Below are positions 13,809 to 32,000 of a DNA stretch of 32,000 bases, piece by piece; position 1 is the first letter of the stretch; each line of letters opens with the position of its first letter. The translations under genes were made by a program, and so were the position numbers. Origin of the DNA: Candidatus Methylomirabilis oxygeniifera (GTDB lineage: Bacteria > Methylomirabilota > Methylomirabilia > Methylomirabilales > Methylomirabilaceae); NCBI GenBank assembly GCA_000091165.1, contig FP565575.1:1500001-1532000 (forward strand), read 5' to 3'. A model generated the notes under the pieces. It did no database searches and was not told the DNA's origin. It saw only the letters and a list, made by a program, of their open reading frames with translations.

Positions 13809-13833
13809 AAGCCGGAAGCTCTACCTCATGTAT

Positions 13834-13859: not shown

Positions 13860-13927
13860 GCAGTGACGGATCTGCCCGCTGTCTGGACTCAGATATGATG
13901 CTACACGGTCTCCCAAATAATCGTAGC

Positions 13928-13956: not shown

Positions 13957-14115
13957 GCACTAAGTGTTATTTGCTAACCGAATCAGCTATTATTTACCAG
14001 GTTCTCCGGCATCTGGCGAATATCGGCGGGAATTGAGGAGATGGGTAAGAGGAGCACTTTTCCCCCTCGTGGAGACCCTGCCGGCACGCTGGGGATTGCT
14101 GTCTTTACTTGGGCA

Positions 14116-15607: not shown

Positions 15608-16291
15608 TTAGGTCCGGCCGAACAACTTGCTTTTGCTCAGCACGAACTCCTCCTTCGTCAAGAGGCCCATCTGATAGAGCTTCCCCAGTCGTTCCAATTG
15701 GTTCAGCATCTGCTCGTCCTTCCGCGTCCCCTTAGCGGCGAAAGACAGGTTGGGAGGGAAAAGACTGATCTCCGCAATAGCCTCTGACGGTGTCATTCGC
15801 TGAGCATCTCGCGTGGTCGTCCGCATCGCCTGTTCCAACTCACGTCGACAGCGGCGGTTTTCTCGTACCAGCCGGATTCGTTCGCAGGCGTTCCGAACCC
15901 TGACGCAGACCTCTCCAATGTTCAGCGGCTTGAGCATCAGATCGTACGCACCGGCCTCCGTTGCCTCAGCAGCCGCGTCAGGCCACACGAATCCTGTAAC
16001 CAGAATTCCGATCAGATCGGGTTGTAGGCGCGTCGCTTCGCGAATGAGGTCGAGTCCCGTCATCCCGGGCATGCGGTAGTCGGTAATGAGCAGATCGAAC
16101 GGCTCATTCCGTAACAGCTCCAAGGCCGTTCGCGGATCGGCGGCAGTGGAGATGTGATGCCACGCCTCGCGCGCCAGAAGATCGGAGAGAACCGACAGGA
16201 CCAGTTCATCATCATCGACGATGAGCAGCGAGTACGGCCCAGCCGTCACGTCCGGCTCTGTCATGGAACTGTGAACAGATCGCTCCATCAC
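15608..16291 (-). CDS. Response regulator receiver fused to a C-terminal SHOCT-like short oligomerisation motif
   Basis: 227 aa. REC (LLIVDDDELV, LLITDYRMPGMTG, GILVTG, LMLKPL). The last ~30 aa, LERLGKLYQMGLLTKEEFVLSKSKLFG, match the SHOCT pattern (L..L...G.IT.EEF...K..LL). GTGATG start/stop overlap with the upstream ORF. Confidence 0.8.
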   Translation of the reverse strand: MMERSVHSSMTEPDVTAGPYSLLIVDDDELVLSVLSDLLAREAWHHISTAADPRTALELLRNEPFDLLITDYRMPGMTGLDLIREATRLQPDLIGILVTGFVWPDAAAEATEAGAYDLMLKPLNIGEVCVRVRNACERIRLVRENRRCRRELEQAMRTTTRDAQRMTPSEAIAEISLFPPNLSFAAKGTRKDEQMLNQLERLGKLYQMGLLTKEEFVLSKSKLFGRT

Positions 16292-16635
16292 CGCAAAGCC
16301 CTCGCCCTGCGAAGGTCGGCAAGGCCCGTCTCACGGAGATGCGCCTTCTCCTCTGGGTCCAGCGGCGCTCGCCCGATATCCTGAGCCGCCTCCTCGAGGA
16401 CCGCGTCGATGTCCGGAAGACGGATCTCCGACGGCGGAAGACTCTTTAGGCGCTCGACCACCTGTCCCAAGACTCGATCCAGGATCTGCCGTCGCTTCGC
16501 TTCGGTGGAAATGAGGACCTCGTCGCGAACGGCCGGGTAGGTATCGGCATCCTGCTCCTGACGCCTGCCGACGCCCGCACGGCTCTTCTCGTACGCCCTC
16601 ACCACCTCGAGTATCCGGACCTGATCGATTCGCAT
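16288..16635 (-). CDS. Hypothetical 115-aa protein in the late flagellar block (weak FlgM-like DxVxIS.EA motif)
   Basis: ORF with AAGGAG 7 nt upstream of the ATG, tightly packed between neighbouring genes. Only DEVLISTEAKRRQIL resembles the start of anti-sigma-28 FlgM domains. No firm family assignment. Confidence 0.5.
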   Translation of the reverse strand: MRIDQVRILEVVRAYEKSRAGVGRRQEQDADTYPAVRDEVLISTEAKRRQILDRVLGQVVERLKSLPPSEIRLPDIDAVLEEAAQDIGRAPLDPEEKAHLRETGLADLRRARALR

Positions 16636-16646
16636 GGCGGTCTCCT

Positions 16647-17006
16647 TCAGGAGATCCGATCGATGAATGCGTTCTCGGCCGGAGCGCAGGCCCGATAGCC
16701 TCCAAGTCCGGTCCGTCCGCGCCGGATTGAGGCCAGTTCAACCGCCGCCTGCTCGCGCCAGGCAAGCAGGGCGGCCTCATTTGCGCTATCCAACTCCGCA
16801 ATCTGCCGCCGCCACGTCTGGCACCTTACTCCGTCCTGCGCAGCCAAAGACGCCAGAAGAGTCTCCCGACGAGCGAGGAGCGCGAGCAGCCCCTCCAGAT
16901 CGCCGCTCCCAATGGCCTCACGCTGTTGCAGCGTCAGCTCAAGGATCTCGTCATGCTGTCGCGTCGTCTCTTCAGCGTTCACGTATCTCTCTGCCCTTTC
17001 ATACAT
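16647..17006 (-). CDS. Small helical protein, possible FlgN/FliT-like flagellar export chaperone
   Basis: 119 aa. HDEILELTLQQREAIGSGDLEGLLALLARRETLLASL fits the FlgN-family heptad pattern. Located directly after flaG-fliD-fliS. The assignment is tentative. Confidence 0.45.
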   Translation of the reverse strand: MYERAERYVNAEETTRQHDEILELTLQQREAIGSGDLEGLLALLARRETLLASLAAQDGVRCQTWRRQIAELDSANEAALLAWREQAAVELASIRRGRTGLGGYRACAPAENAFIDRIS

Positions 17007-17024
17007 CGGGCGTGTCCTAACACC

Positions 17025-17390
17025 CTATGCCTCGGCCTTGAACAGTAATCCGAAGAGACCCCTCATCACGGCTCTCAGTTTCGTCATCTCTTCCGAAGGG
17101 ACCTGCCGTATCACCTCGTTCGTATCGCGGTCGATCACCTTGATAATCACGCTGTGGCTCTCCCGGTCGATGACGTAGGCGAGCCCGACATTCTGGTGCG
17201 GGCTGAGGTTCTCTAAGACCTTTTTCAGATCGGGCATGGCGACCTCCAGCGTTGCGAGAGAAGACGCTCCCGATCCGGCCGCCTTGTGGCTTCCCCTCTC
17301 CGGCGGTAACGGTGCGCTGATCTCGCCTCCGGATGATCTGACCCCCATCATCGGCTCGATCGGCTTGCTCTCGTGACCTATATTTGCCAT
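17025..17390 (-). CDS. flaG: Flagellar protein FlaG
   Basis: 121 aa. C-terminal LAYVIDRESHSVIIKVIDRDTNEVIRQVPSEEMTKL is the FlaG family core. Adjacent to fliD. Confidence 0.82.
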   Translation of the reverse strand: MANIGHESKPIEPMMGVRSSGGEISAPLPPERGSHKAAGSGASSLATLEVAMPDLKKVLENLSPHQNVGLAYVIDRESHSVIIKVIDRDTNEVIRQVPSEEMTKLRAVMRGLFGLLFKAEA

Positions 17391-17397
17391 CGCCTCC

Positions 17398-17413
17398 CCC
17401 CTCTGTCGAGGGG
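17398..17413. other. Short G/C-run hairpin (CCCCTC TGTC GAGGGG) between fliD and flaG, overlapping the flaG SD
   Basis: Direct reading: 6-bp stem, 4-nt loop. On the - strand the 3' arm continues into GGGGGGAGG just before the flaG ATG (17390). Confidence 0.35.
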
Positions 17414-17417
17414 CCTC

Positions 17418-18881
17418 CTACTCTAAAATAAATCGTTGAGCACTCAGTACGCTCAGCGCCTTTTGCAAACCCAACAGTTGTTTGCGCAGGGCCACTTCCC
17501 GCTTGTCCAGTCGCTCTTGCAGCCGGGTAATCTGCTGGTTGATATTGTTCGTCTTCGACGTGACTGAGGAGAGGCCACCATCGATCAGCGCCCCGGCGTT
17601 GACAAACCCATCCAGACGGGCGATCAGCCGTGTGGAGACGCCGCCCCCCAAAGCAAAGAGGTCGATCAGCCCACTGAGTTTCGTCGCAATCGCACTCTCG
17701 AATTTGCTGGTATCGCTGATGGACAGGGTTCCGTTCGAGGCCGCCGTGATCCCGACCTCGGCCAAGAGAGCCGGATTGCCTGTCTGTACACCGCTCACCG
17801 AGCTGCCGACGTCGGACCTAAGATTCGACACCAAAGAGACATACGTCGTCTCACTTGCCAACGCGCCCCTGATGACCGAATTCACCTCTGTGGAACTGGT
17901 CCCGGAGGTCGTCGTGCTGACCGTCACTGCGATCCGCTCCCGTAAGAAGGTCAACGCCTTGTTGTACGCGTCCAGAAACTCCTGAACACTCGCCTTTATC
18001 GCGCTCTTATCCTGGCTGACCGTGAGCGTCACATCAGAGGCCGAGAGCCCGAGCAGGTTGATCGTCACCCCCGTCAGAACGTCGCTGACGCTGTTGCTGC
18101 TCCGCGTCATATCCAGGCCATCCAGCTTGAACTTGGCGTCAAGCGTTGCATCGGCAAAGAGATAGCCGCCTGCCGTCCCCGACGAGGCGATCTCACTGTT
18201 GAGCTCAATCGCGCTGAGCAGGGTGCCGGTTGCGTCGGCCGTTCGAACCTTGTTGGCCAAGCCGGTTTGTTTGCTGGTCAGGACCAGTCGACTCGTGCCG
18301 GAGGTGTCGTTGACTACCGAGGCACTGACTTTGGCGCCGAGCGTCGCATCGTTGTTGATTGCTGTAGCAAGGTTGGTGAGGATCGTGCTATTGGTATCTC
18401 CGGCGTTCAGCGTGACATTGACCGTGACAGCCGTACCGCTCGTCGCCGGATCGGTGCCGTCATAGGTCACCTTCAGACTCTTCTCGCCGGCCCCCTCCGC
18501 CGCCGCCACATCGGTTCCTGTAGAGGTAAGCTGCTTTGACACGACCGTGCTCGACTTGGCAAGTTGCGAGACAGACAGGGCATGAACGGCAGCCAGCGCC
18601 GAAGTCGAGGCGGTTGCCGTCGCGACGGACGTATTGCTCGAGCTGACCGCCTTGACTTGAAAGGGCGACAGCGTTCCCACCTGGGCCAGGGCCTGAGCCT
18701 TGGTTCGCAGCGCGCTCAGCGCACTCTTGAGGTCGCTGAGCGTCGCAGACCGGCGTGAGAGCGTCATCTGATCGGACTGCAATCCGGCCAGCGGTCGCCG
18801 CTCAACGGTCATGACACTCGATACGAGCGCTTCGATGTTAAGTTGGAAAGCCGACGCCGACAGGATCTCCGTGATCGCCAT
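17418..18881 (-). CDS. fliD: Flagellar filament cap protein FliD (HAP2)
   Basis: 487 aa. N-terminal LVSSVMTVERRPLAGLQSDQMTLSRRSATLSDLKSAL, Ser/Thr-rich centre, C-terminal NINQQITRLQERLDKREVALRKQLLGLQKALSVLSAQ are typical of FliD. AAGGAG lies 6 nt upstream. Confidence 0.9.
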   Translation of the reverse strand: MAITEILSASAFQLNIEALVSSVMTVERRPLAGLQSDQMTLSRRSATLSDLKSALSALRTKAQALAQVGTLSPFQVKAVSSSNTSVATATASTSALAAVHALSVSQLAKSSTVVSKQLTSTGTDVAAAEGAGEKSLKVTYDGTDPATSGTAVTVNVTLNAGDTNSTILTNLATAINNDATLGAKVSASVVNDTSGTSRLVLTSKQTGLANKVRTADATGTLLSAIELNSEIASSGTAGGYLFADATLDAKFKLDGLDMTRSSNSVSDVLTGVTINLLGLSASDVTLTVSQDKSAIKASVQEFLDAYNKALTFLRERIAVTVSTTTSGTSSTEVNSVIRGALASETTYVSLVSNLRSDVGSSVSGVQTGNPALLAEVGITAASNGTLSISDTSKFESAIATKLSGLIDLFALGGGVSTRLIARLDGFVNAGALIDGGLSSVTSKTNNINQQITRLQERLDKREVALRKQLLGLQKALSVLSAQRFILE

Positions 18882-18898
18882 GGTCTACTCCTTACGTC

Positions 18899-19306
18899 TC
18901 ACACACCCCGTACGTCATACTTCAGATGCTGTTCGACCGGAGCCTGGCGCAACGCCGTCTCCCAGGCCTCCTTCAATTGCCTCAAAATCTTTGACGCCTC
19001 ATGAAATGACCCTGAACCGATCGCATTGAGGCAGTATTCGTACAGACGAAACAAGGGAACGGCGATCTCCTCATAGTCAAAGTTCAGGGCCGCAATCAGC
19101 TCGGTGACGGCGCGTCGCGCACGTACGGCATCGCGGCGGCCGCAGGCAGCGAGCGCCACGTCGTATACGATGAGAATGAGTTGCATCGGGGAAGCCCCGA
19201 GAACCTGGGCGCTCTGGTACGCGGCCATTGGGCTCCCGGTGAGGGGGGCCGCCCGCAACGAATCGGATCGAACCACTACAGAACCCGCACCGACATGTGA
19301 TGGCAT
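18899..19306 (-). CDS. fliS: Flagellin-specific export chaperone FliS
   Basis: 135 aa. AAYQSAQVLGASPMQLILIVYDVALAAC...ELIAALNFDYEEIAVPLFRLYEYC fits the FliS four-helix pattern. AGGAGG lies 5 nt upstream of ATG 19306, which gives a 26-aa N-terminal extension relative to the internal M at 19228. Confidence 0.88.
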   Translation of the reverse strand: MPSHVGAGSVVVRSDSLRAAPLTGSPMAAYQSAQVLGASPMQLILIVYDVALAACGRRDAVRARRAVTELIAALNFDYEEIAVPLFRLYEYCLNAIGSGSFHEASKILRQLKEAWETALRQAPVEQHLKYDVRGV

Positions 19307-20258: not shown

Positions 20259-20309
20259 TGTGGCTACCTCCGTGTAGCGGCAACACGACTTCGCGTTGCC
20301 TGGTATATA

Positions 20310-20331
20310 GGCCGGACATCCTTGCCCGGCC
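20310..20331 (-). terminator. Hairpin GGCCGG-N10-CCGGCC downstream of the GT2-TPR stop and upstream of flagellin
   Basis: Direct reading: 6-bp GC stem followed on the - strand by TATATACC, which is only a weak U-tract. Its function as terminator or operator is unresolved. Confidence 0.3.
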
Positions 20332-20357
20332 TGAGATACGATTCGTAAACGATAGTG

Positions 20358-22328
20358 TTAAGCGATTGTGAGCCGTGAGGCGCCGTTCAGAGGAGGCGGA
20401 GCACGGCCATCCTCGGCCATAGAAAATAGGGTGTGGGGTGTGGGGTGTGGGGTGTGTAGGGGCACTGCTTGCAGCCCCCGATAAGGCGCAAGCTGTGATG
20501 ATCGGGATACTTCGCACCCTGCGCCTCGTACAATACATTCCTCCGCATCAAATCCCCCCGCATCCCCCCTTTTATAAAGGGGGGACTGGGGGGATTTCTG
20601 GAGGGTGGGGGGGGTTCCCACCTCGTGGCGCTCCCGTTGTACAAAGCGAGCGAGGAGTCGCAAGCGGCGCTCGATCTCCGGCGTACCCGGCGCAAGGCGC
20701 TCAGCCTCGAGGAGGGCGTCCAATGCTTCACGGTACTCGCCGGCCTCGATCAGACAGCAGCCCAACAGAAACGGAATACGGGCATCGCTTCGTTCGAGTT
20801 CCCATGCCTTCCGACAGAATCTGGCCGCTTCCTTACGGTTGCTCTTGCCATCCGCAAGACAGGCCAACGCAAAGTAGGCCATAGCCGATGGCGCCTCGGT
20901 CACAAGACGTCGATAGGTCACCTCTGCCTCTGTAAGGCGATTCAGCTTCAGCAGGGCCTGGGCTTGCAGCTCCAGTCCACCCTTGTCGTCCGGACAGGCC
21001 TGCAAGAACTGCTCGCAGGCTGCGAGTACCTCTGTCCACTTTCCCAATTCGGCGTAGCATTCGGCAAGGGTGAGACGCCCGTGCGGAATTCGTTCGAATA
21101 GTGTGGCAGCCTTTTCCAGTGAGGCTGCGGCATCCTGCGCTTGCCCCCGAAGCTTATGGACCTTCCCCATACCAAGGTGCGCCTCCGGCGAGTCCGGATC
21201 GTCGGCCAGCGCGGCCGTGTAGCAGTCGGCCGCGCGATCGACCTGCCCCAGCGCAAAGAGGTAGTTACCCTTAAGCGACCGGGCATAGGCCGGATTCGAT
21301 ATATGACCCAGGACGCCGTGGATGCCGCGGCCCTGTCGGCTTACCTTGTCCAGGTAGAGGTCGATCTGCCGAATGGCGGCCTCGTATCGACCCAGTCGCC
21401 CCAGCGCGAGCGCTCCGGTCAGGTGCGGCATCGCATAGCCCTGGTCCTCCTCCAGCGCGGCAACGCACTCCTGCCACGCCTCTTCAAACCGTCCCCTGTT
21501 GAGTAGGCAGGCGGCCAGACTTCTCCGGGCCACCGATCGGTTGGCGGGCGGCAGACCGCGAAGTGACAGCGCCGTCCGGTAGCAGGCAATCGCCTCGCCG
21601 ACCTTCCCCTCAAGCGCATAGACCTCACCCAGATGGAATTGGGCCGATGGATCTTCGGGATGGTCGGTGAGTTGCCGCTTCAGCAGGCGGATGTTGCGCT
21701 GTCGCTTGGCCGGCAGATCAACCCAGGCACCATGGTAGCCCGTATGGTGAACCCGTATCTCCGATGGGCCGATGCTCCCGCCCATCCGCGCGATCGACGG
21801 CGAGACCTGCTCATGGACTCGCCCTTCAAACCGGATCTCAGGCTGGCTCCTGAACAGGCGTGGGAAGGCGTTAATGACAGCGTGACGTGAGCGGCTGTCG
21901 TCCACAGGGCTCGCGATGTTCAGCAGATAGGCGGTCGGGCCGTCCGGACGCAACAGGGCGCACAGGCGACCCTTATCCTCCTCAGCCAAAGCCTCATCTG
22001 CGTCCAAGACCAGGATCCAGTCTGAGGTGGCGTGCGACAATGAGACGTTTCGCGCAGCCGCGAAGTCGTCGTTCCACCTGTGCAATGCGACCTTGGCCCC
22101 GTACTGCCTCGCAATGTCGAGTGTTCGATCGGTTGAGCCGGTATCGACGATGATAATTTCGTCGGTGACGCCTTTGACGCTCTCCAAACAGCGGCTGAGG
22201 TGAGCCTCCTCATTCTTCACGATCATGCAGAGGGAAAGGGTCTGCCGATTTATGGGTCGTACTGGGGCATCCTTCACGGTGTCTCGCACCTTACGCCTCG
22301 CACATCGTACTCGTTGAGCCTGTTTCAT
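20358..22328 (-). CDS. Family-2 glycosyltransferase fused to C-terminal TPR repeats (candidate flagellin glycosyltransferase)
   Basis: 656 aa. GT2 core LSLCMIVKNEEAHLSRCLESV...IIIVDTGSTDRT...DDFAAARNVSL...WILVLDADEAL (DxD), then many TPR-like A/L/Y repeats. The last ~95 aa (nt 20358 to about 20640) are translated repeat DNA (see repeats and findings). Confidence 0.85.
   Translation of the reverse strand: MKQAQRVRCARRKVRDTVKDAPVRPINRQTLSLCMIVKNEEAHLSRCLESVKGVTDEIIIVDTGSTDRTLDIARQYGAKVALHRWNDDFAAARNVSLSHATSDWILVLDADEALAEEDKGRLCALLRPDGPTAYLLNIASPVDDSRSRHAVINAFPRLFRSQPEIRFEGRVHEQVSPSIARMGGSIGPSEIRVHHTGYHGAWVDLPAKRQRNIRLLKRQLTDHPEDPSAQFHLGEVYALEGKVGEAIACYRTALSLRGLPPANRSVARRSLAACLLNRGRFEEAWQECVAALEEDQGYAMPHLTGALALGRLGRYEAAIRQIDLYLDKVSRQGRGIHGVLGHISNPAYARSLKGNYLFALGQVDRAADCYTAALADDPDSPEAHLGMGKVHKLRGQAQDAAASLEKAATLFERIPHGRLTLAECYAELGKWTEVLAACEQFLQACPDDKGGLELQAQALLKLNRLTEAEVTYRRLVTEAPSAMAYFALACLADGKSNRKEAARFCRKAWELERSDARIPFLLGCCLIEAGEYREALDALLEAERLAPGTPEIERRLRLLARFVQRERHEVGTPPTLQKSPQSPLYKRGDAGGFDAEECIVRGAGCEVSRSSQLAPYRGLQAVPLHTPHPTPHTLFSMAEDGRAPPPLNGASRLTIA
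20429..20456. repeat. Tandem heptanucleotide repeat (GGGTGTG)x4
   Basis: Direct reading: four exact head-to-tail copies, inside the C-terminal tail of the GT2-TPR ORF (translated HTPHPTPHT). Confidence 0.85.
20550..20597. repeat. Composite G/C-run palindromic element (copy B): AAATCCCCCC-GCAT-CCCCCCTTT-TAT-AAAGGGGGG-ACT-GGGGGGATTT
   Basis: Direct reading. Inner 9-bp and outer 10-bp stems. About 80% identical, in the same orientation, to the element at 25288-25333, including the ATTTCTG flank. Confidence 0.7.
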
Positions 22329-22546
22329 TGTGGTTCTACTCTTTGCGATCAGCTTCCATGGAACCGCTAACTACTCTTCCTCTTGGTAGTGCTATCGGCA
22401 CCACAGCTAGGAAGCATGAGCGGTTTTTTCTCACGGGTAAGCATGACACAGTGATTGCAGCGCGAGGTGGAAGCAGAGGCAGGGGTACAAGACAACGTAC
22501 AGGGTGTGGGGTATGCGATGCGGAGCTTGGAAATGCAGGAGCGAGA

Positions 22547-24892
22547 TCAGACTACGTCTTCGCCCTCATCCTGATGATGGAGAGCTTTCGCGATCACCTC
22601 TGAAAGCTCGTTGATCAGGTACGGTTTCTGGAGGAAGCCCACCATTCCTTCATCAAGAAGCTGCTGGGCGACCTCGTTGAGGCTAAAACCCGTAGTCAGG
22701 ATAGCCTTGACATTCGGCTCGAACGCTTTCAGCGCCCGGAAGCAGTCAGCACCTGAAAGCCGCGGCATCACCATGTCAATGATGATGAGATCGATCTGGC
22801 GACCGAACTGCCGGTAGTAATCGACGGCCTCTTGACCATCCGAAGCAGTGACCACTTCATAGCCCATGTGGCGCAGCAACTCCGCTGATGAGGTGCGTAC
22901 AACCTCCTCATCATCCACGACGAGGATGCGGCCATGGCCGAGAATCGGTTGCGTCGGTTCGACGCTGACAGGCGCAGGGACGACACCCGTCGCAAGAGGC
23001 CAATAGACCTTGAACGAGGTGCCGGATCCCTCCTCGCTGTAGACGCGGATGGTGCCACCGTGGTTCTTGACAATACCGTAGACCATGGCCAGCCCCATTC
23101 CTGATCCCTTGCCTGGCTCCTTGGTCGTAAAGAACGGCTCGAACACGCGCCCTTGAATCTCTTGAGGAATGCCCATGCCGGTGTCTGTGACCGACAGCAT
23201 GACGTAGTCCCCTACGGTCGCCCCGAGGTTGCGGCGACAGTAGTCGTTATCGAGTGTGACGACATCCGTCTCGAAGTGCAGGTTGCCCCCGTGCGGCATG
23301 GCGTCCCGGGCATTCACGGCAAGATTCAGGATCACCTGCTGGATCTGACTGGGATCGCCAAGCGCAACAGCCTGCTCGACGCACAGACGCTGCGTGATGG
23401 TGATCCGCTTGTCGATCGTCCGGCTCAACAGATCGACCACCTCCCGCGCTGCGGTGTGCAGGTCTACGGGCATCTCCTGATGCTTGCCGCCACGAGCGAA
23501 TCCCAGGAGCCGATTCGCCAGTTGCGCGCAGCGCTCCCCCGCTCCCTCGATCACCTGCGCCGCCTGATACACGTCCTCACCGGGCTGCCCGCGCAGCTTC
23601 AGCAGCCTGGAATAACCTAAGATCGGGGTTAACAGGTTGTTAAAATCGTGCGCGACGCCGCCCGCCAGCGTGCCTATCGCCTCCATCTTTTGTGCTTGTC
23701 GGAGCTGCGCCTCCAGACGCTTCTGCTCGCTTACGTCTCTGGCGATTCCCTGCACCCCGACCACCTCCCCGTTCCGGTAGATCGGCCCGCTGCTCACTTC
23801 GAGCGGCACGCGATGCCCGCCCCTGGTGACAATCTCCAGCTCACAGACGTCCCTCGATATCTCACCGCGCACATTCTGCGCTGTGATTTCGTGATGGAGC
23901 CCCAGGTACTCCGGGGCAATGACCTGAGCGACATGCATGGTGAGTGCTTCACTGCGTGTGTAGCCCGTAATCTGTTCGGCCATCCGGTTGAACGCGGTAA
24001 AGCGGCCGCTCAGGTCGTGCGTATAGATGACGTCGTTGGCGTTCTCGAATAACTGGGCGTACTGCCGCTCCCGCTCGCGCAGTTGCCGGGTCCGCTCCTC
24101 CAACAGATCTTCAACCGCCAGGAGAGACCGTTCGCGCCACGCCTTCTCGCAGAGGTCGATCAGGTGCTCAGGATCGAACGGCTTGCGCACATGCCCATCC
24201 GCCCCCATCCGCATGAACTGCAGGGCCAACTCCGGACTCGGATTGGCGGTGATCATGATCGCCACCATCCGTACGGCTGCCTGCTTAAACTCCTCGAGCA
24301 GTCGATCGGCCGTTATATCGGGTAGATGGTAGTCGAGAATCGCTATCTGCGGAGAATGGTCGCGGAAGAGACGCCGGGCCTCTTCGCCGGTGGACGCCGT
24401 GAAGACCGTGTAGCCATGCGCCGCAAAGGCGCGGCTGAGGATCTTGGACTGCATCGGGCTATCTTCGACGATCAGCGTACGCATCGACAGTTGGGGCCTG
24501 CGCCCTTCCAGCAGGGCTTGCACGCTGGCCCGCAACTCGGAGGGTTCATAGGGGGCCGACAAAAAAGCATTCGCGCCAAGGTTGGCAGCAATCTGCTCGG
24601 CGTCGGCGCCGGAGAACGTCCAGGAGACGACCAGAATCGGGATCCGGTTGAAGGCCGTATATTCCGGGGACCGCAGCAGTCGGCAGAAACGCCAGCCATC
24701 GACCCCAGGCATATACAGATCCGTCACGATGACGTCGGGCGGCCCCTGTTCACACATAACAGCAAGCGCCTCTTCGGCGCCCCTGCAAGGGCGGACGTGC
24801 AGTCCGTCCTTCTCCAGAAGCTTCGACGTGAGCAGTAATTGCGACAGATCATCATTGACAACGACGGCGGTGGGACGTTCACCGGTGGTCAT
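22547..24892 (-). CDS. Hybrid sensor kinase: REC-REC-PAS-HisKA-HATPase-REC
   Basis: 781 aa. REC1 ([22 protein letters not shown]), REC2 ([19 protein letters not shown]), PAS ([26 protein letters not shown]). H-box [14 protein letters not shown] boxes ([29 protein letters not shown]). C-terminal REC ([28 protein letters not shown]). No TM. Confidence 0.9.
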
Positions 24893-26940
24893 GCCTCTCC
24901 CTCCTTCATGAATTGGGCGAGCGCCGGGGTCAGTCGCGCAAGTGCGGCCTCCATGGTCGCGAACGTCTGCCCGGCGTGAGTCACATCTCCGTCACGACCC
25001 ATCGCCTCCAACCGCCCGAGCGCCTCAACGGCAATCCGCGCGCCGAACATGCCGGCTGCGCCCTTCAAGCTATGCGCGACCTGCATAAGCGCCGCGCCAT
25101 CACCACGTCTGACAGCATCGCGAATCTCCTGAAGCCGCTTCGGACAGTCATCGAGGAACAGACGTATCAGCCTCCGAAGCAGGCCCACGTCACCATCGAC
25201 GAGAACCAGGACAGCCTCCCGGTCGAAGCCTGACACGAGCGAGGTCGACGCGTCCGCCCCTGCCGTCGACGATCGGCCGACTGTCTCAAAACCCCCCGTT
25301 CCCCCCTTTGACAAAGGGGGGCGAGAGGAGATTTCTGAGCTTGGTGGGGATTGTGTGCTGGGCGTGACAACTGTCATAGCCATGGGCGTGCCGCCAACGC
25401 ATGAAGTATCAGTAAGACTCTCATTATGGTCGAGACCGGAAGCCCTCGCGCACAGACGCGCAATAGCCTCGTAGAGCGCCTTGGCCTGGATCGGCTTTGA
25501 GAGGTAATCGTCCATCCCTGCCGCCAGGCAGCGCTCCCGGTCACCATTCATGGCATGAGCCGTGAGCGCGAGAATCGGCAGATGGGCGCCGCTTCCTCGC
25601 TCACGCTCGCGGATGGCGGCAGTGGCTGAGATGCCATCCATTTCCGGCATCTGTACGTCCATCATCACCAGGTCGAACTGCTCCCGCTCCAGGGTAACCA
25701 GCACCTCGCGACCGGTACCGGCCACAGCCACGGTGTGCCCTGCCTTCTCCAGCAGCCGAACCGCCAGTATCCGGTTGACCGGGTTGTCCTCTGCCAGTAG
25801 GATGCGAAGACGGCGACATACGGCCGGGGTCTGGACTACCTGATCCCGGATCACGCCGGCCGCCACGCCACTGTTCGAAGCATTGGCTGAAGGCGACTGC
25901 ACGCCGAATCGTGCGGTAAAATGGAATGTGCTCCCCAACCCTGGCTCACTCTCAACCCATATCCGGCCGCCCATCATTGTGACCAGGTGGGCCGTAATGG
26001 TCAGACCCAAACCGGTCCCGCCGTACTGGCGTGTCGTCGAACCGTCCACCTGGATGAAAGGATCGAAGATGACGTGCCGTTTCTCAGGCGGGATGCCGAT
26101 CCCTGTATCGGTCACCGAGCAGTACAGCACACATTGTCTAAGATCAGCTTCTACGATGGCCTGTGCGCGGACTGCTATTCCGCCTCGTTCGGTAAACTTG
26201 ATGGCGTTGCTGACCAGGTTGACCACAATCTGGCGCAAGCGCGTCGGATCGCCCACCAGCGTATCCAGTACGTCAGGTAGAATCTCCCACGTCAGCGTCA
26301 GATCCTTTCGGCCGGCCTGCAGCGTGAGCGGCCGGAGCGTCGCATGAAGGATCTCGCCCAGACTGAACGGGATAGCCTCCAGGTTGAGCTTGCCCGCCTC
26401 GATCTTTGAACAATCAAGAATGTCGTTCAACAGACCGAGAAGTGACTCGGCGGAACTCTTCACCAGGTCAAGGTACTCCCGCTGCTCCGTGCTCAGATGC
26501 GTATCCAGCACGAGCTCCGTCATCCCGATAATGCCGTTCATCGGCGTCCGGATCTCATGGGACATATTCGCGAGGAACTCCGATTTGAGACGGGCAGCGA
26601 TTTCCGACTGGGCTCTGGCCTGTTCGAGCGCCTTATTGGCGGTCTCGAGCGTCACTGCGTAATCACGCACCTCTCGGGTGCGATCCTGGACCTCTTGTTC
26701 AAGGCGCTCCAGGTAGGTTCGTTGCTCCGCCAAACGAGCGTCGCGCTCTCCCAGCATCGCAGCCATGAGTTGCTCATGCTCAAGCTGGAAGACCTGATAC
26801 TGTTGCGTCTGTTGCCGGAGGCGTGTCTCGATATAGGCTATGGCATCGGCGCAATCGCTCATCGCGATACCGTCGGTCGATTGGTCTTGGCTCACCTCCT
26901 GACCAAAGATGCTGTCAAGTTGCGTTTCGGAAATAGCCAC
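24889..26940 (-). CDS. Hybrid sensor kinase: coiled-coil-HisKA-HATPase-REC-Hpt
   Basis: 683 aa, no TM or recognisable sensor domain. N-terminal coiled coil. H-box [46 protein letters not shown] ([30 protein letters not shown]). C-terminal Hpt ([14 protein letters not shown]). GTG start at 26940. The stop region overlaps the next kinase start by 4 nt. Confidence 0.9.
25288..25333. repeat. Composite G/C-run palindromic element (copy C), in frame within the REC-Hpt linker
   Basis: AAAACCCCCC-GTT-CCCCCCTTT-GAC-AAAGGGGGG-CGA-GAGGAGATTT. Same architecture and orientation as 20550-20597. Translated within the kinase as [21 protein letters not shown]. Confidence 0.7.
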
Positions 26941-26949
26941 GGTGCATTC

Positions 26950-27828
26950 TCAGATATTGATCAGGGCGTGAGCCTTAGCCATCTCGCCGTCCATATCGTC
27001 ATATAAGACCTTTAAGCCCATCCGGTCGATCGACAACGCGGCCAGAGTTGAGGCACTCGGAGGCGCAATATGAGAAGCGCCCATCGAACGGATCCCTTTC
27101 GATGCGCAGATAAAGTTGGCGACCTCTACTGCCTGCACGATAAACCGGGATTCATCGCTGCAACGCTCAGATGCATGGTGATGGCGGATCGCAGTCAGGA
27201 TGACCGGTGAAAAACGCCATTGCTCGGCCACTCGTGCCCCCAACTGCGCGTGATCGAAGCCAAGATGCTCACGCTCGGTCTGACAAAGGGATATGCCGGG
27301 CTTGAGGACCGTGACGATCCCGGCAAATGGCTGATGGAGATACTGATCCAGCAGGACAATGCCCACATCGTGAAGGAGACCTGCCAGAAAGGCTTCGCTG
27401 AATGTTCGTAACCCGGCACGCGAGGCGACCAGACGCGACGCCAAGGCCACACAGACCATATGTCGCCACAACCCCCTGCGAGTATACGATCCGACCACTG
27501 TGTCTTTCTTAAAGCGCTCGGCGACCAACGCGGTCATGGCCAGGTTTCTGACCTCGTTGGTGCCCAAAATATTGATGGCCCATGTAACGGTCTGAACCGG
27601 GCGACGAAGACCGTAGGCTGCCGAGTTCGCCGTACGCAGGATTCGAACCGCCAGGGAGGGATCGCTTCCGACCGCCGTCTCGAGAGCGGCGGCGGAAGAT
27701 CGCGGGTTATTCATCACCTCAATGATCTGAAGGGCGATATGCGGGATTGTGGAGATCTCGCGGATCTGCGCGATCATCTCCTCTAACGATGGTGTGGACG
27801 TGTCGACCGATACTCCATAAACGTTCAA
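26950..27828 (-). CDS. HDOD domain protein (HD-related output domain, signalling accessory)
   Basis: 292 aa. IPHIALQIIEVMNNPRSSAAALETAVGSDPSLAVRILRTANSAAYG and AFLAGLLHDVGIVLLDQYL match the HDOD pattern. TTG start at 27828; an internal ATG about 17 codons downstream is also possible. Its stop lies 9 nt upstream of the next kinase start. Confidence 0.85.
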   Translation of the reverse strand: MNVYGVSVDTSTPSLEEMIAQIREISTIPHIALQIIEVMNNPRSSAAALETAVGSDPSLAVRILRTANSAAYGLRRPVQTVTWAINILGTNEVRNLAMTALVAERFKKDTVVGSYTRRGLWRHMVCVALASRLVASRAGLRTFSEAFLAGLLHDVGIVLLDQYLHQPFAGIVTVLKPGISLCQTEREHLGFDHAQLGARVAEQWRFSPVILTAIRHHHASERCSDESRFIVQAVEVANFICASKGIRSMGASHIAPPSASTLAALSIDRMGLKVLYDDMDGEMAKAHALINI

Positions 27829-28048
27829 TGTGGCCGCTCCCTCTCCTGAATCTGCATTCTGATGTCGCCCCGACCACCCCGCACCCCTCGGCGTTCTCCA
27901 GATAAGTGAGATGAACCTCCGGGTAAGGGGTGATCAGGACTATGACCCGACGAATATGTTATCGTACCGACAGGCCGATTTCTTGAGGGGAATCTACCCG
28001 ATTGGCCCCATCCCCACCTATAGCCGGAGAAGGAGTGGGCTTCGCCGC

Positions 28049-29740
28049 TTATGGCCTATACACGCACACGAGATCCTGGCGGAGCGCCTCTCGGGCCTCT
28101 ACGACGACGGCCTGAAGGAGCGACTGAAGTTCTGTTGGAGGGTTGAGTCCAAGCGCGTGTTCGGCGGTCTGCAGTGCCTTGAGCGGTTCTCCGGCGCCGA
28201 GCGCGGCGATCGCCAGGCCGCTCCAGTCGGAGGGCGTCGGATTCGCAAGGGCGCACAGCGCCTCGTATACGGGAACCGCCGCCGTCCACGCCTCCAGACT
28301 CCATAATGCCTTGCCGATGAGGCGATAGAGTGCGGGTTCAACCACCCCTTGCTGGAGAAGCGTATGACCCTCCTCTACCAACTCCGACCATCGCCCCAGT
28401 TGCGCATATGCCTGACAGAGGCCAAGGCGGGCGTTCTGCAACTCAGGCTCTCCGGCCAGGGCCTCTCGAAATGCTTGCATGGCTTTTTCGGAATCGCCAA
28501 GCTGGTTGTGCGCAGCCCCGATGTTGACGAAAAGCGAGGGAGTGGTATCCCCCAATCGGTGGGCGGTCTCGAACGCCTCAAGGGCAGCATCCGGCCGACC
28601 CATGGCAAGGTGAATCACACCCAAGAGCGTATGCGTACCAGGAAAATCCGCATTCACACGAATCGCCTGGCACACGGAGTTCCGCGCTGCCTCGTACTGC
28701 TGGAGTTTGTATTGGACGGTCCCCATCAGCAACCATGGCGCCCACGGCACAAGTCGGACGGGATGCCCGGGCTGCTCTGGGCGATGCGCGAATTCGACCG
28801 CCTTGCGGAACTGTTCGAGCGCGGTCTCCGGCTCCTGCTTGTGATCGTAGGCCTGGCCCAGGTAGAGATAGGCTGACGCGAGCGCGGGCCACAGGGCGAT
28901 CGCCTGCCGGAGGGCCGCAATGGCTTCGTCAGGCGCCTCCTGCAGCAGGTGCAGCACGCCGAGTTGCTGACAGGCCAACGCAGCGGTGGCATCGCCGATC
29001 GTCTGTTGCCCCCGTGTCCGTTCGCAATCAAACAGTGCAAGCGCCCGCCGATAGCTCGCAATGGCCTGATCCTGCTGCGACAGCGTCATATGCGTCTCAG
29101 CCAACTGGATCCAGGTCAAGCTGTCCTCCGGCGTGCGGCTAACTTGGTCCTCGAGCAGCCGAAGATTTCGCATCGCTTTAGCCTGCATGACCTCATGGGT
29201 TTGAAGATAGCCAAGGTGCTCCAGCGTCATCTCCGAGTAGATGATCTTGCCTTTGCCCCTCAGAGAAGGTAAGAGACATTCATGTATGACTCCCTCGTAC
29301 CTCGCCCCGATCCTGCTTCGAAACAGCCGCGGCAACCATCTGAGTGGAATCGTCCCCAACGCACTGCCGCCATGAGTCGGACACTGAAGCTTCACGAGAT
29401 AGGCGGCCACATCGGGGACCTCGACCAGGTCACGCATCAGGGGTCCGCTGTTGCCGACAAGCCGTTCATCGGCATCCAAGACGAGAATCCAATCGCCGAC
29501 CGCACGGCGAAGGGACTGGTTCCGGGCGGCGGCAAAGTCGTCGCGCCATTCCTCACGGAAGACCCGTGCCCCGGCCGCAGTGGCGATCTCGACCGTCCGA
29601 TCTGTCGATCCCGTATCGACAACGACGATCTCATCCACAAACGGGCCGGCGTTCGCGAGGCAGTCCGGTAAATACCGCTCCTCATTCTTCACGATCATGC
29701 AGAGGCTTACGATCTCCCGCCTCTTGACCCGCTTGCCCAT
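28049..29740 (-). CDS. Family-2 glycosyltransferase fused to C-terminal TPR repeats (paralog of 20358-22328)
   Basis: 563 aa. VSLCMIVKNEERYLPDCL...IVVVDTGSTDRT...DDFAAARNQSL...WILVLDADERL is nearly colinear with the other GT2-TPR, followed by TPR-like repeats. Its start lies 2 nt after the upstream GT stop. Confidence 0.87.
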   Translation of the reverse strand: MGKRVKRREIVSLCMIVKNEERYLPDCLANAGPFVDEIVVVDTGSTDRTVEIATAAGARVFREEWRDDFAAARNQSLRRAVGDWILVLDADERLVGNSGPLMRDLVEVPDVAAYLVKLQCPTHGGSALGTIPLRWLPRLFRSRIGARYEGVIHECLLPSLRGKGKIIYSEMTLEHLGYLQTHEVMQAKAMRNLRLLEDQVSRTPEDSLTWIQLAETHMTLSQQDQAIASYRRALALFDCERTRGQQTIGDATAALACQQLGVLHLLQEAPDEAIAALRQAIALWPALASAYLYLGQAYDHKQEPETALEQFRKAVEFAHRPEQPGHPVRLVPWAPWLLMGTVQYKLQQYEAARNSVCQAIRVNADFPGTHTLLGVIHLAMGRPDAALEAFETAHRLGDTTPSLFVNIGAAHNQLGDSEKAMQAFREALAGEPELQNARLGLCQAYAQLGRWSELVEEGHTLLQQGVVEPALYRLIGKALWSLEAWTAAVPVYEALCALANPTPSDWSGLAIAALGAGEPLKALQTAEHALGLNPPTELQSLLQAVVVEAREALRQDLVCVYRP

Positions 29741-29742
29741 CC

Positions 29743-32000
29743 TCAGCTACGACAGGCGGCAGCAGGTTGATCGCAGTGTACGTACGTGTCAAGGGCCGTA
29801 GCCACCGTCCGGCCGGCCTCCCGAACCCGTACACCGAAATCGGCCAGCGACGCAGCAAGATCCAGGTCCTCACGAAGCGGCCCGATCGTGCGACACACCG
29901 CCGGATTAAACACGATGCAGGATGGGACAAGGTGATCCGTCACCGCAAGCTGTTTCCCATAGCGATGAGCCCGGCGCAGGACGAACTGGCGGAGCGCTTT
30001 GCCGGTCCCTTTGTAGTCAGCCTTGACCTGTTGCGGGGCCAGACCATCGTTCATCGCGGGACCGACCATGGCAAGGTGTGGGTCGCGATCACAGGCAGTC
30101 AGCAGGCGCTTCAACCACCCTGGCGTAACGACCACGTCACCCGACAGCAGGATCACCGGCTCGTCACCCGACGATTGGAGCAACCGGTTGAGCAGTTGTA
30201 CGGCAGGTACGTCAGCGGTTCCGATCTGCCACCCATCCGGACACGATGGCTGAGGCGGTGGAGCGCATCCGTTCCCGTTGCCGGTCGAAGGACTGATCGT
30301 AATAGCTAACGGCTGGTTCGTGTGTTGGACCAGCGACGACCACAACGGGGTAATTCCATGACCGTTGGGAATAATGATGGCGCTGAACGGGGTCTCTCCC
30401 ATGACGGCGGGCTCGCACCGGCCGGGATCCTCGCTAATCTCCCGCCACCACCGGCCGTCACTGTCACACCGGTGGTCAGCACCGACGTCAGGAAGCGGAA
30501 CCGACAACGGCGCGCTCGGAGCCGACTGTGGCGGAAAGCGATACCCTTTTTCGTATAGCGCATCGTCGGGGATACCCCACTTCGCCTTGAACAACCCCCA
30601 GTTGCGCATGAGGCTCTGACGGTAGTCGATCTTCGCAGTCTTGAACGTTTGGCTCCCAGTATGGTGGACAAAGACATCCAGCGCGATCCGCGCCCGAAAA
30701 CCGACCTGGAATGCCCGGATACAGAAGTCGTCATCCTCGAAGTTGCCGCTGCCGAACTGCTCATCCAGCCCCCCGATACGCGCAATGACCGCTTTGCGCG
30801 CAAGCAGGCAGAAGCCGACAACCCTGGTCGCCTCTCGACTTTGCCCGTCCTGGCTTTGAGCCCACCCCGCCGCAAATACGGCAAGCCCCTCACGTCCCTG
30901 ATATGAGGTCTCCCGCACCAGTTGGGGACCCGACACATAATTGGACATCGGTCCAACGATACCGACATCGGGATGCGCGTTGAAAACCCGGAGCATCCGC
31001 GTGAGCCACCCTTCGGTGACAACGGTGTCGTTGTTGAGCAACAGCACATACTCGCCTTTGGCCAGCGCAAGCCCCTGATTGTTGCCGGCGGCAAACCCTC
31101 GATTCGTCGCATTTGCAACGATCCGGACATTGTCGTGAGCGGCCATGTACTCACGCAAGTAGGCGAGCGTACCGTCGGAAGAGGCGTTGTCCACAATGAT
31201 GAGCTCATGCGGCTCTGGAGTGTGCGCCTGGATACTCGCTAGGCATGGCCGCGTATGCTCAAGCCCATTGTGGGTGAGGATGATGATCGACGTGAGGCGT
31301 GAGGCGTGAGGCGTGAGAGGCGATTCGGTCTTCGGCATTCGGCCTTCCGCCTGCTGTGTCGTTACTTCAGCCTTCAGCCTTCGGCCTTCGGCCTTCATTG
31401 TTGGCTTAAACCAGTTGATACCCCACAACTCCACCGGGCTGGGAACGTTGCCGACGCCATAGTGGACTTCGAGTTTCGCGTACAGTTTGTCCGTACTCTC
31501 CTGAACAAGCCGCGACGTCTTCGTCTCCGCCTCCGACTTGAAACTGACCTGACCTTCGTGGTGAACGAAGGTGTCGGTGGCCACAAGCAATGTATAGCCC
31601 TTCAGCCGCAATCGCCACGACAGATCAAGGTCGTCGTTTCCCAGGAACAGCTCCTCATCCAGCAGACCGACCTCATTCAACGCCCGACGTGGCAACATCA
31701 GGCAGAAACCAATAAGGAGTTTAGTCTCTACGGCGCATCCTCGATTCACCCGCGCCATCTGTTCGGCGATCTCCGCGACGGTACGGCCGTTCTTCAGTTC
31801 AGGTTTATAGAGTTGATATTTTTGCAGCCCCGCCACGTAATCTGAAACCGGTCCGACCGCTCCTACCCCTGGTCCGAAATGGCCGATTAATCGATCCACC
31901 CACCCAGGCGTCACAACGGTATCGGGGTTGAGCAAAACTACGTATTCGCCGGATGACGCGCGGATCCCTTGATTGCAGGCGGCTGAAAACCCGACATTGT
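29743..32000 (-). CDS. Multi-domain glycosyltransferase (GT2 - repeat linker - GT2 - degenerate GT2-like); the N-terminus lies beyond the window edge
   Basis: The frame stays open to nt 32000: my translation of 31998-31936 gives NVGFSAACNQGIRASSGEYVVLLNPDTVV, a GT2 core, so the track start at 31935 is not the real start. Domain 2: SIIILTHNGLEHTRPCL...IIVDNASSDGT...NRGFAAGNNQG...LLLNNDTVVTEGW...EDDDFC. Domain 3: FSAIIIPNGHG...VILLSGDVVVTPGW. Confidence 0.85.
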   Translation of the reverse strand, partial: NVGFSAACNQGIRASSGEYVVLLNPDTVVTPGWVDRLIGHFGPGVGAVGPVSDYVAGLQKYQLYKPELKNGRTVAEIAEQMARVNRGCAVETKLLIGFCLMLPRRALNEVGLLDEELFLGNDDLDLSWRLRLKGYTLLVATDTFVHHEGQVSFKSEAETKTSRLVQESTDKLYAKLEVHYGVGNVPSPVELWGINWFKPTMKAEGRRLKAEVTTQQAEGRMPKTESPLTPHASRLTSIIILTHNGLEHTRPCLASIQAHTPEPHELIIVDNASSDGTLAYLREYMAAHDNVRIVANATNRGFAAGNNQGLALAKGEYVLLLNNDTVVTEGWLTRMLRVFNAHPDVGIVGPMSNYVSGPQLVRETSYQGREGLAVFAAGWAQSQDGQSREATRVVGFCLLARKAVIARIGGLDEQFGSGNFEDDDFCIRAFQVGFRARIALDVFVHHTGSQTFKTAKIDYRQSLMRNWGLFKAKWGIPDDALYEKGYRFPPQSAPSAPLSVPLPDVGADHRCDSDGRWWREISEDPGRCEPAVMGETPFSAIIIPNGHGITPLWSSLVQHTNQPLAITISPSTGNGNGCAPPPQPSCPDGWQIGTADVPAVQLLNRLLQSSGDEPVILLSGDVVVTPGWLKRLLTACDRDPHLAMVGPAMNDGLAPQQVKADYKGTGKALRQFVLRRAHRYGKQLAVTDHLVPSCIVFNPAVCRTIGPLREDLDLAASLADFGVRVREAGRTVATALDTYVHCDQPAAACRS
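31291..31399. repeat. Block of heptanucleotide tandem repeats inside the multi-GT ORF: (CGTGAGG)x4, (MTTCSGY)x4, (CTTCRGC)x5
   Basis: Direct reading. CGTGAGG x3 plus CGTGAGA at 31291-31318. ATTCGGT CTTCGGC ATTCGGC CTTCCGC at 31323-31350. CTTCAGC x2, CTTCGGC x2 and CTTCATT at 31365-31399. Translated as KAEGRRLKAE...ESPLTPHASRLTS between two GT2 domains. Confidence 0.85.

Follow-up and report, generated by a model that had tools for sequence, protein, structure and literature searches.

Why is a phosphorelay encoded between glycosyltransferase genes, directly upstream of a flagellin gene? The question is raised by a 32,000-nucleotide (nt) stretch of Candidatus Methylomirabilis oxygeniifera (FP565575.1, assembly GCA_000091165.1, positions 1,500,001-1,532,000), called the window here and the reference for all positions given without another source. 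The window is a single large flagellar region with a G+C content of about 0.54-0.64. Its minus strand encodes, in the order 5′ to 3′, a giant protein with several glycosyltransferase family 2 (GT2) segments, a GT2 protein with TPR domains (GT2-TPR_A), a stand-alone HDOD protein, two histidine kinases (HK1 and HK2), a second GT2-TPR protein (GT2-TPR_B) and the flagellin FliC. In that order, the gaps between neighbouring genes measure 2, 220 and 9 nt; HK1 and HK2 overlap by 4 nt; 218 nt then precede GT2-TPR_B and 99 nt precede fliC (Table 1). An initial annotation, made from the letters of the sequence, had proposed that HDOD, HK1 and HK2 form a relay dedicated to this glycosylation island, gating flagellin glycosylation or filament type. 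Its description of the block stands: open reading frame (ORF) coordinates give the same six genes on one strand with the same spacings, Pfam agrees with every domain architecture, the block encodes no DNA-binding response regulator, and neither kinase has a transmembrane (TM) segment. Its functional proposal fared otherwise. We read the block as two separable things side by side in a sigma-54/sigma-28 flagellar regulon, a glycosylation set and a late-flagellar cassette of HDOD, HK1 and HK2, and the cassette is more likely to govern motility signalling than the glycosylation of flagellin.

The Cassette and the Glycosyltransferases Vary Independently

Synteny within candidate division NC10 was taken from contigs encoding NC10 homologues (L001, L002/L003, L086, L087, L091 and L092 in our numbering of loci). 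Relatives elsewhere came from an HDOD-profile scan of one genome per species, which listed 80 loci, mainly from Planctomycetota and none from NC10. The best named relatives of the window's HDOD and HD-GYP proteins, at 74-81% identity, are metagenome-assembled genomes labelled 'Candidatus Methylomirabilota', 'candidate division NC10' and 'Candidatus Methylomirabilis sp.'. The neighbourhood that the initial annotation considered distinctive is conserved in relatives: four further NC10 assemblies or contigs share the order HDOD-HK1-HK2-GT2-TPR-fliC-fliS-fliD-flaG (HDOD 75-81% identical), so the arrangement is not a matter of chance.

Two loci at a similar distance from the window (FliC 69% and 67% identical) separate the cassette from the glycosyltransferases in opposite directions. 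L086 (GCA_003105305.1; HDOD 81%, FliC 69%) has toxin-antitoxin genes followed by HDOD, HK1, HK2, GT2-TPR and fliC, with no upstream glycosyltransferases. L092, a contig from a JGI metagenome (FliC 67%, GT2-TPR_B 66%), has in succession the giant glycosyltransferase gene, GT2-TPR, fliC, fliS, fliD, flaG, fliT, an unknown gene, REC and REC-HD-GYP, and within this locus none of HDOD, HK1 and HK2 lies between the giant glycosyltransferase/GT2-TPR genes and fliC. The neighbourhood search for GT2-TPR, HDOD and HK-Hpt genes together beside flagellin, proposed in the initial annotation, found no such set outside NC10: among the matches listed, no GT2-TPR or flagellin gene stands next to HDOD in the 80 loci from other phyla. 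The replacement in L086 marks the site upstream of the cassette as variable and insertion-prone; bases 1-2000 of that locus encode a PhdYeFM antitoxin, PIN, Uma2 and FitA-like proteins at the position of the upstream glycosyltransferases.

Several observations agree with a relay that gates GT2-TPR activity or filament type by protein contact, for example through the TPR domains. The cassette lies between glycosyltransferase genes in the window, L001, L002/L003 and L087, and in every NC10 genome that has it, it is directly upstream of GT2-TPR_B and fliC. Sigma-28-like promoters precede both units, so that they would be co-expressed, and the GT2-TPR flagellin transferase GmaR also acts as a regulator (PMC9638930). 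Against such gating, beyond the loci just described, the glycosyltransferases lack a receiver or any other phospho-acceptor domain, the partners of homologous cassettes are cyclic di-GMP (c-di-GMP) enzymes or a second kinase and not glycosyltransferases, and the window has a single flagellin gene and hence no visible choice of filament type. Because the cassette and the glycosyltransferases vary independently, and with a promoter belonging to the cassette (below), the claim of a dedicated relay was not upheld; we think it probable that the relay is not dedicated to glycosylation. Nesting alone is a misleading guide to function here, since the 'relay inside a glycosylation island' dissolves once somewhat more distant genomes are compared.

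The Cassette Has a Sigma-28-Type Promoter

Sigma-28 promoters were recognised as TAAAG(TTT)-N11/12-GCCGATAA close upstream of a gene, a match at the level of sequence, with the motAB promoter as reference. Within the 220-nt spacer before HDOD, a -35 element CTAAAG and a -10 element ACGATAA are conserved in L001/L002, L086 and L087 around a variable 17-base spacer; the window itself has CTCAAG at -35. Written as CTAAAGAAA-N12-TACGATAA, this promoter has the same geometry as that of motA. It is separate from the promoter of the GT2-TPR_B/fliC unit, which lies in the 218-nt spacer, where CTCAYG-N17-(GC)CGATAR is conserved in five genomes (the window, L002, L086, L087 and L092) and the -10 region at 22392 reads GCCGATAG. 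When 16-32 kb was scanned for generic sigma-70 promoters and terminators, sites were no more frequent than in shuffled sequence, and the spacers had none. HDOD-HK1-HK2 thus has the look of a separate late flagellar operon.

We found no fliC-specific sigma-28 or sigma-54 promoter in the 99-nt leader or at the 3′ end of GT2-TPR_B. A GG-N9-GC motif near 20370 was rejected as a sigma-54 site, having the wrong spacing and no conservation, and the sigma-28-like motif nearest to fliC is 2.1 kb upstream, before GT2-TPR_B. The lack of a recognised promoter implies either co-transcription with GT2-TPR_B or a promoter of an unrecognised type; the sigma-28-like promoter probably serves GT2-TPR_B and fliC together. 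The genes from fliC to REC-GAF-HD-GYP are packed 4-27 nt apart save for one 112-nt gap, and because of this tight packing the late GT2-TPR_B-fliC unit possibly extends to REC-GAF-HD-GYP.

Sigma-54 motifs (TGGCAC-N5-TTGCT) stand before flgB and before the operon headed by REC122, a single CheY-like REC protein. Taken with the sigma-28 motifs, they suggest a flagellar hierarchy in NC10 that runs from sigma-54 to sigma-28, as in Vibrio or Pseudomonas. The locus would so outline a full plan of motility regulation for NC10/Methylomirabilis, with sigma-54 for the basal body, sigma-28 for motAB, the cassette and the glycosyltransferase/fliC genes, a CsrA-type leader, and probable glycosylation of flagellin. 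These bacteria, which are not in pure culture, matter ecologically for the cycling of methane and nitrogen.

The HDOD Protein Is the Probable Input Module

The HDOD protein scores 184 bits against PF08668 (gathering threshold 22.9), and its AlphaFold2 model (pLDDT 88.8) has as top fold matches 3HC1, the best, followed by 3M1T, SadB and MmoQ. In PDB entry 3HC1, two iron ions are held by five histidines and one aspartate (PMC12075610). The corresponding residues of the window protein, H123, H153, D154, H193, H217 and H218, align with the His/Asp set of 3HC1, are lost in 3M1T and are invariant in 45 homologues. Because all six di-iron ligands are conserved, the subfamily to which the window protein belongs is probably one of metalloproteins.

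HDOD, HK1 and HK2 contain no hydrophobic segment (Kyte-Doolittle maximum <1.6 over 19 residues). The initial annotation had called the relay 'sensor-less'; the part of that description concerning TM segments holds, and the rest is doubtful, since HDOD is the probable input module. That the protein is more specifically a di-iron sensor of gas or redox state (O2, nitric oxide (NO) or Fe) feeding a soluble two-kinase cascade is an idea to which we attach little probability. That idea takes the HDOD-kinase cassette, paired or fused, to be widespread, with Planctomycetota, Desulfobacterota and NC10 among the phyla that have it. If it were true, the long-uncharacterised 'HD-related output domain' would also serve for input, and an NC10 methanotroph would have intracellular NO or O2 linked to c-di-GMP and swimming within the late flagellar regulon. 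HDOD occurs very commonly in bacterial signalling, and its mechanism is not established. Three recurrent patterns, namely a gene directly upstream of a sensor-less kinase or fused to its N-terminus, the di-iron ligands conserved in this subfamily and the frequently adjoining c-di-GMP enzymes, make its action as the input of cytoplasmic kinases a testable hypothesis.

HK1 and HK2 Carry the Catalytic and Acceptor Residues

HK1 resembles BarA, TorS and ArcB in having the catalytic set of an unorthodox kinase in one chain: H128, the N-box, the G1 and G2 boxes, D428 and the Hpt histidine H623 ('AHSLKG') are all present, and its Hpt is the only one in the window. It was rejected as BarA (429 bits against a cut-off of 890) and as TorS (425 against 676), having no TM or periplasmic sensor, and its NCBIfam match to the NahK/ErcS family is likewise below cut-off. 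Its N-terminal 115 residues have counterparts in the kinases encoded after HDOD in L004/L005 (E 1e-17 to 1e-18), with weak matches in four Planctomycetota loci (L006, L009, L013 and L031). Among the matches listed, the closest non-NC10 homologue of HK1 is an HK-REC-Hpt protein in L032 (1-3668; E 1.5e-139), which is followed by HDOD-REC-GGDEF.

HK2 retains D58, D187, H415 and D706 and has a CckA-like PAS-HK-REC core with the H-box AHDFNNLL. It was rejected as CckA itself (372 bits against an NCBIfam cut-off of 1000), two N-terminal REC domains standing in place of TM helices. The first of these (residues 1-130) keeps the acceptor D58, lacks the conserved lysine ('SAPY' for 'KP') and is absent from the REC-PAS-HK-REC homologues downstream of HDOD-kinase fusions; perhaps it is an atypical receiver particular to this lineage.

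HDOD-Kinase Units Recur in Other Phyla

Beyond NC10, and among the matches listed, proximity to a kinase was counted by identity to the window HDOD. At 38% identity or more, in Planctomycetota, a hybrid kinase gene lies directly downstream in 15 of 23 evaluable loci; of 52 loci at 25-36% identity, 4 have an adjacent kinase and 8 a fused one, the fusions including several from Desulfobacterota. Pfam recognises HDOD-linker-HisKA-HATPase fusions in L057, L060 and L064. A REC-(PAS)-HK-REC gene follows the fusion in five of the eight fusion loci, and four of its products score E 1e-116 to 1e-130 against HK2; the single pairwise comparison, with the protein of L060, gave 37% identity over 650 residues. 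Lacking a REC domain itself, the fused kinase has an obvious acceptor in the N-terminal REC of the second kinase, and the combination of a fusion with a REC-bearing second kinase argues for a kinase-to-kinase cascade with HDOD in the position of a sensor domain.

Within the same set of matches, c-di-GMP enzymes often adjoin such cassettes: REC-HD-GYP proteins are encoded beside them in L018, L019, L029 and L036, and a REC-PAS-GGDEF-EAL protein follows the fusion in L064. Motility genes recur as well, with HDOD relatives next to mot, flg or che in L004, L068, L071, L082 and L084. In L004 the HDOD-kinase pair lies within a che/flg cluster with several single REC proteins and CheX, and in L084 it adjoins motAB, a REC and an Hpt being encoded separately. 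Pairs or fusions isolated among metabolic or unrelated genes occur in L058, L060, L089 and L090.

As side observations, REC/HDOD/HD-GYP fusions about 660 residues long are frequent among the nearest relatives that the window HD-GYP protein has outside NC10, and HDOD recurs fused to c-di-GMP-making and c-di-GMP-degrading regulators alike.

Candidate Outputs and Proposed Mechanism

The window holds one Hpt, two kinases without an adjacent cognate regulator and two receivers without an adjacent kinase; both sigma-54 regulators have a neighbouring kinase of their own. The two orphan receivers, REC-SHOCT and REC-GAF-HD-GYP, close the fliC-to-fliT string, spaced at 4-nt distances, and both genes are kept in L091 and L092. 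REC-SHOCT has its acceptor D71. REC-GAF-HD-GYP has D60, 'HDIGK' and 'HHEWINGNGYPDGL', with HD, HHE and GYP motifs intact; its closest NCBIfam family, below cut-off, is the NosR-type REC c-di-GMP phosphodiesterase, and it is a predicted c-di-GMP phosphodiesterase. Among the outputs that the initial annotation had considered were the downstream HD-GYP and REC-SHOCT proteins, which fits both the orphan receivers found here and the c-di-GMP neighbours of cassettes elsewhere.

From these elements we propose a late-flagellar kinase cascade with HDOD as input and the orphan receivers as likely outputs. A cytoplasmic HDOD protein that keeps its di-iron ligand set would bind HK1 and modulate it. Within HK1, phosphate would pass from His to Asp to the His of the Hpt, which would then serve the N-terminal receiver or receivers of HK2 (the cascade), the two orphan receivers of the filament operon, or both. 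The output that we prefer is activation of REC-GAF-HD-GYP, and also of REC-SHOCT, so that c-di-GMP, and hence motor or lifestyle behaviour, would be tuned after completion of the flagellum. The regulation of HK1 by HDOD, the route of phosphotransfer, the identity of the output and the signal are all points that we infer, and we give the model as a whole an even chance.

Several points weigh against the proposed cascade. The sigma-28 assignment is one of motif and footprint only, and no fliA gene lies in the window; the -35 element of the GT2-TPR_B promoter is atypical, and fliC showed no promoter of its own. Every signalling route is drawn from adjacency. The orphan receivers need not depend on the cassette, because L092 keeps both with no cassette nearby, and REC-HD-GYP follows HDOD-kinase in only about 4 of about 17 Planctomycetota loci among the matches listed. 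The HDOD pocket of SadB works without a ligand. Finally, the cassette is nested between glycosyltransferase genes not only in the window but also in L001, L002/L003 and L087, which could reflect function, though these are close relatives.

The relay might instead feed flagellar expression or the motor, with phosphate passing from the Hpt to REC122 or to the sigma-54 activators and feeding back on the hook-basal-body or filament classes or on rotation. In Pseudomonas, flagellar sigma-28 control is a target of the HptB pathway, and the window's own cluster provides a stand-alone REC, two REC-sigma54-HTH regulators and sigma-54 promoters before the REC122 operon and flgB; the pairs in L004 and L084, among che/flg genes and beside motAB, point the same way. 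Each sigma-54 regulator has, however, its own adjacent kinase (12753-13808 and 7156-8493), REC122 heads the operon of a PAS kinase and a sigma-54 regulator and so has a more obvious partner there, and a late sigma-28 operon would be an odd place for a regulator of earlier classes. We regard this route as rather improbable.

We hold it to be no less improbable that the cassette serves general redox, metal or stress signalling in the cytoplasm, having landed in a variable spot among neighbours of no relevance to it, and has no specific flagellar role. The isolated two-gene units of HDOD and hybrid kinase described above (L089 and L090; L058 and L060) would be expected of such a unit, as would the variable upstream site, occupied by glycosyltransferases in some genomes and by toxin-antitoxin genes in L086. 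It accounts poorly for a conserved sigma-28-type promoter of motA geometry before HDOD in the window and four related loci, for a position among filament genes that is stable across every NC10 genome with the cassette, for the recurrence of HDOD relatives near mot, flg or che, and for the motility phenotypes that HDOD proteins give in Pseudomonas and Xanthomonas. Gating of glycosylation by the relay, weighed above with the synteny, is the explanation that we consider highly improbable.

Relation to Known Systems

A multi-step relay in a flagellar regulon is a known kind of arrangement. The pdeH and ycgR genes of E. coli and the HptB relay of Pseudomonas are c-di-GMP or phosphorelay genes of the flagellar regulon that act after assembly; their proteins are different ones, and E. 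coli has neither a kinase cascade nor HDOD there. Closer in layout are H-NOX/HnoK, with HnoB and HnoD, and NosP/NahK, with HptB, in which a stand-alone metallo-sensor gene lies directly upstream of a sensor-less cytoplasmic hybrid kinase and a multi-step relay to REC-EAL or REC-HD-GYP controls c-di-GMP and sets the balance of motility and biofilm. The window resembles these in placing HDOD directly before HK1, and its HD-GYP protein and HK1 are nearest to the NosR-type phosphodiesterase and to NahK/ErcS, each at the sub-threshold scores given above. It differs in that the upstream protein is HDOD only by Pfam, not H-NOX or NosP (FIST), and in that the operon, known here from its sequence, adds a second kinase with N-terminal receivers and a flagellar sigma-28-type promoter. 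By this analogy the cassette may work like H-NOX/HnoK or NosP/NahK; it is not a member of either.

MmoQ of Methylococcus capsulatus, encoded next to the sensor kinase MmoS and thought to act with it as a pair (PMC7994243), is the nearest precedent, because an HDOD protein is encoded next to a kinase. MmoQ is an HDOD protein by PDB entries 3P3Q and 3LJX, which match the window HDOD at about 24% identity. It is treated, however, as the regulator (output) of MmoS in the copper control of methane monooxygenase, and there is neither a flagellar context nor a second kinase. Other HDOD proteins have been connected with motility: the stand-alone PSPTO_4229 alters swimming (PMC11813219), and Xanthomonas GsmR (PMC6543031) and SadB (PMC12075610) are genetically linked to flagellar motility or gene expression. 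None of the three is described as a kinase partner. GsmR is a REC-HDOD protein, and SadB, a proteolysis adaptor, lacks most di-iron ligands and has an HDOD pocket that needs no ligand (PMC12075610), in contrast to the window protein with all six. Pairing or fusion of HDOD with a kinase as an input module, its sigma-28-type control and the conserved di-iron ligands appear not to be described in the literature searched.

Glycosyltransferases and Flagellin

The glycosylation set is the more familiar half of the block, GT2-TPR genes beside fliC being an already known arrangement. GT2-TPR_A and GT2-TPR_B are distant paralogues (31% identity over 526 residues, E 8e-59) with Glycos_transf_2 scores of 90 and 73 bits, a 'LVLDADE' stretch (DxD motif) in both, and several TPR families above cut-off C-terminal to the glycosyltransferase domain. 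The best solved relative of the GT2-TPR_B glycosyltransferase domain is Listeria GmaR (22ao, E 8.5e-34), with SunS next, and its TPR region matches TPRs of the OGT type. A function as SunS-type peptide S-glycosyltransferase was rejected (96 bits against a cut-off of 350, weaker than GmaR, and no glycocin context). The view of the initial annotation that TPR-linked glycosyltransferases beside flagellin genes are known flagellin-modifying enzymes is supported by this likeness.

In Caulobacter FlmG, TPR and glycosyltransferase domains are likewise combined, with a domain order the reverse of that in GT2-TPR and a different glycosyltransferase fold. FlmG is described as a modular flagellin glycosyltransferase (PMC7591256). 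GmaR of Listeria monocytogenes is a GT-TPR-linker-antirepressor protein that O-GlcNAcylates flagellin (PMC9638930) and is also the anti-repressor of MogR. GT2-TPR_B shares with it the N-terminal GT2/GT-A domain followed by TPR and a place beside the flagellin gene; among 79 PDB matches it matched only the 204-residue glycosyltransferase fragment and none of the GmaR TPR-linker-antirepressor chains, and the window, unlike GmaR, has two GT2-TPR paralogues and a giant multi-glycosyltransferase. GT2-TPR_B adjoins fliC in every related locus examined (L002, L086, L087 and L092). By sequence likeness it is a GmaR-like candidate flagellin glycosyltransferase; flagellin glycosylation at this locus is reasonably suggested by that adjacency, kept in five genomes, together with the likeness to GmaR.

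The upstream members of the set are variable among related loci, GT2-TPR_A being absent in L086 and L092. Orthologues of the giant glycosyltransferase have 2454-2515 or 3364 residues, with methyltransferase, GT2, GT1 and TPR domains. It had been annotated as a triple GT2 protein, and the visible 751 residues do contain three mutually homologous GT2 segments (41, 33 and 33% identity), one of them a clear GT2 by Pfam; that description does not extend to the whole protein, as the ORF at 29743-31935 is incomplete and the frame runs off the window.

The flagellin, encoded by the only flagellin gene in the window, consists essentially of the conserved N- and C-terminal helical regions. Its mRNA leader folds with a minimum free energy of -42.1 kcal/mol (z = -4.56) into two conserved hairpins. 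Five genomes share without change the GGA-containing loop of hairpin 1, CAAGGATG, and the Shine-Dalgarno region ACAnGGAGGTA, and there are compensatory changes in hairpin 2. The Bacillus hag leader has two CsrA sites, and the layout of the fliC leader is similar, so that by analogy the leader resembles the CsrA type; neither csrA nor fliW is among the genes of the window.

Other Features of the Window

Table 1. Features of the flagellar window, listed in descending order of position
Feature	Position	Strand	Basis or remark
Giant multi-domain glycosyltransferase, C-terminal ~750 aa	29743-32000	-	Frame open to window edge; Pfam GT2
GT2-TPR_A, 563 aa	28049-29740	-	Pfam GT2 and TPR
Sigma-28-type promoter of HDOD-HK1-HK2, CTCAAGAAATCGGCCTGTCGGTACGATAA	27959-27987	-	In 220-nt spacer; conserved motifs
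HDOD protein, stand-alone, 292 aa, TTG start	26950-27828	-	Pfam HDOD, 184 bits
HK1, coiled-coil N-terminus and HisKA-HATPase-REC-Hpt	24889-26940	-	Pfam
HK2, REC-REC-PAS-HisKA-HATPase-REC	22547-24892	-	Pfam
Sigma-28-like promoter of GT2-TPR_B, CTCATG-N17-CGATAG	22392-22420	-	In 218-nt spacer; conserved motifs
GT2-TPR_B, 656 aa	20358-22328	-	Pfam GT2 and TPR
fliC leader, two hairpins	20259-20357	-	Folding and conservation
Flagellin fliC, 279 aa	19419-20258	-	Pfam Flagellin_N and Flagellin_C
fliS, fliD, flaG, fliT/flgN-like gene, 115-aa unknown	16288-19306	-	Pfam; gaps of 11-27 nt
REC-SHOCT orphan response regulator	15608-16291	-	Pfam; 4-nt overlap with preceding gene
REC-GAF-HD-GYP orphan response regulator	14116-15603	-	Pfam HD_5 131 bits, REC 84 bits
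Kinase (351 aa) and sigma-54 regulator	11290-13808	-	Pfam; kinase at 12753-13808
motAB	9472-11261	+	Pfam
Reference sigma-28 promoter of motAB, TTAAGTTT-N12-GCCGATAA	9384-9421	+	Conserved in L091
Sigma-54 motif TGGCAC-N5-TTGCT, before REC122/PAS-kinase/sigma-54-regulator operon	8984-8999	-	Perfect; conserved in L091
Single REC (REC122, CheY-like, 8532-8900), PAS kinase (7156-8493), second sigma-54 regulator	5769-8900	-	Pfam
Sigma-54 motif TGGCAC-N5-TTGCT, before flgB	5735-5750	-	Perfect
flgB, flgC, fliE, fliF, fliG, fliH	from 5606 downward	-	Pfam

A search of the whole window against Rfam at gathering thresholds gave zero matches. Downstream of fliC, the order fliS-fliD-flaG-fliT-unknown is the same in L091 and L092. 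The FliS-like ORF (18899-19306, minus strand) matches only residues 60-118 of the 135-residue FliS profile, the genes called in relatives encoding 132-135 residues, and it is placed between fliC and fliD, not after fliD. The 115-residue protein (16288-16635, minus strand) has no family match and is encoded between the fliT-like gene and REC-SHOCT, overlapping the latter by 4 nt; it is also present in L001/L002, L091 and L092. We considered it as FlgM-like for its 'DEVLISTEA' stretch and rejected this, Pfam giving no support even at E = 10.

On its minus strand, the 307-nt spacer between REC-GAF-HD-GYP and the kinase/sigma-54-regulator pair (13809-14115) has a CCGCCGATAT motif at 14020-14057, for which no -35 element could be recognised. 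The longest ORF for motB (10164-11261, plus strand; 365 residues) overlaps motA by 175 nt, and its true start is probably near 10323, because the orthologue in L091 is called at 312 residues.

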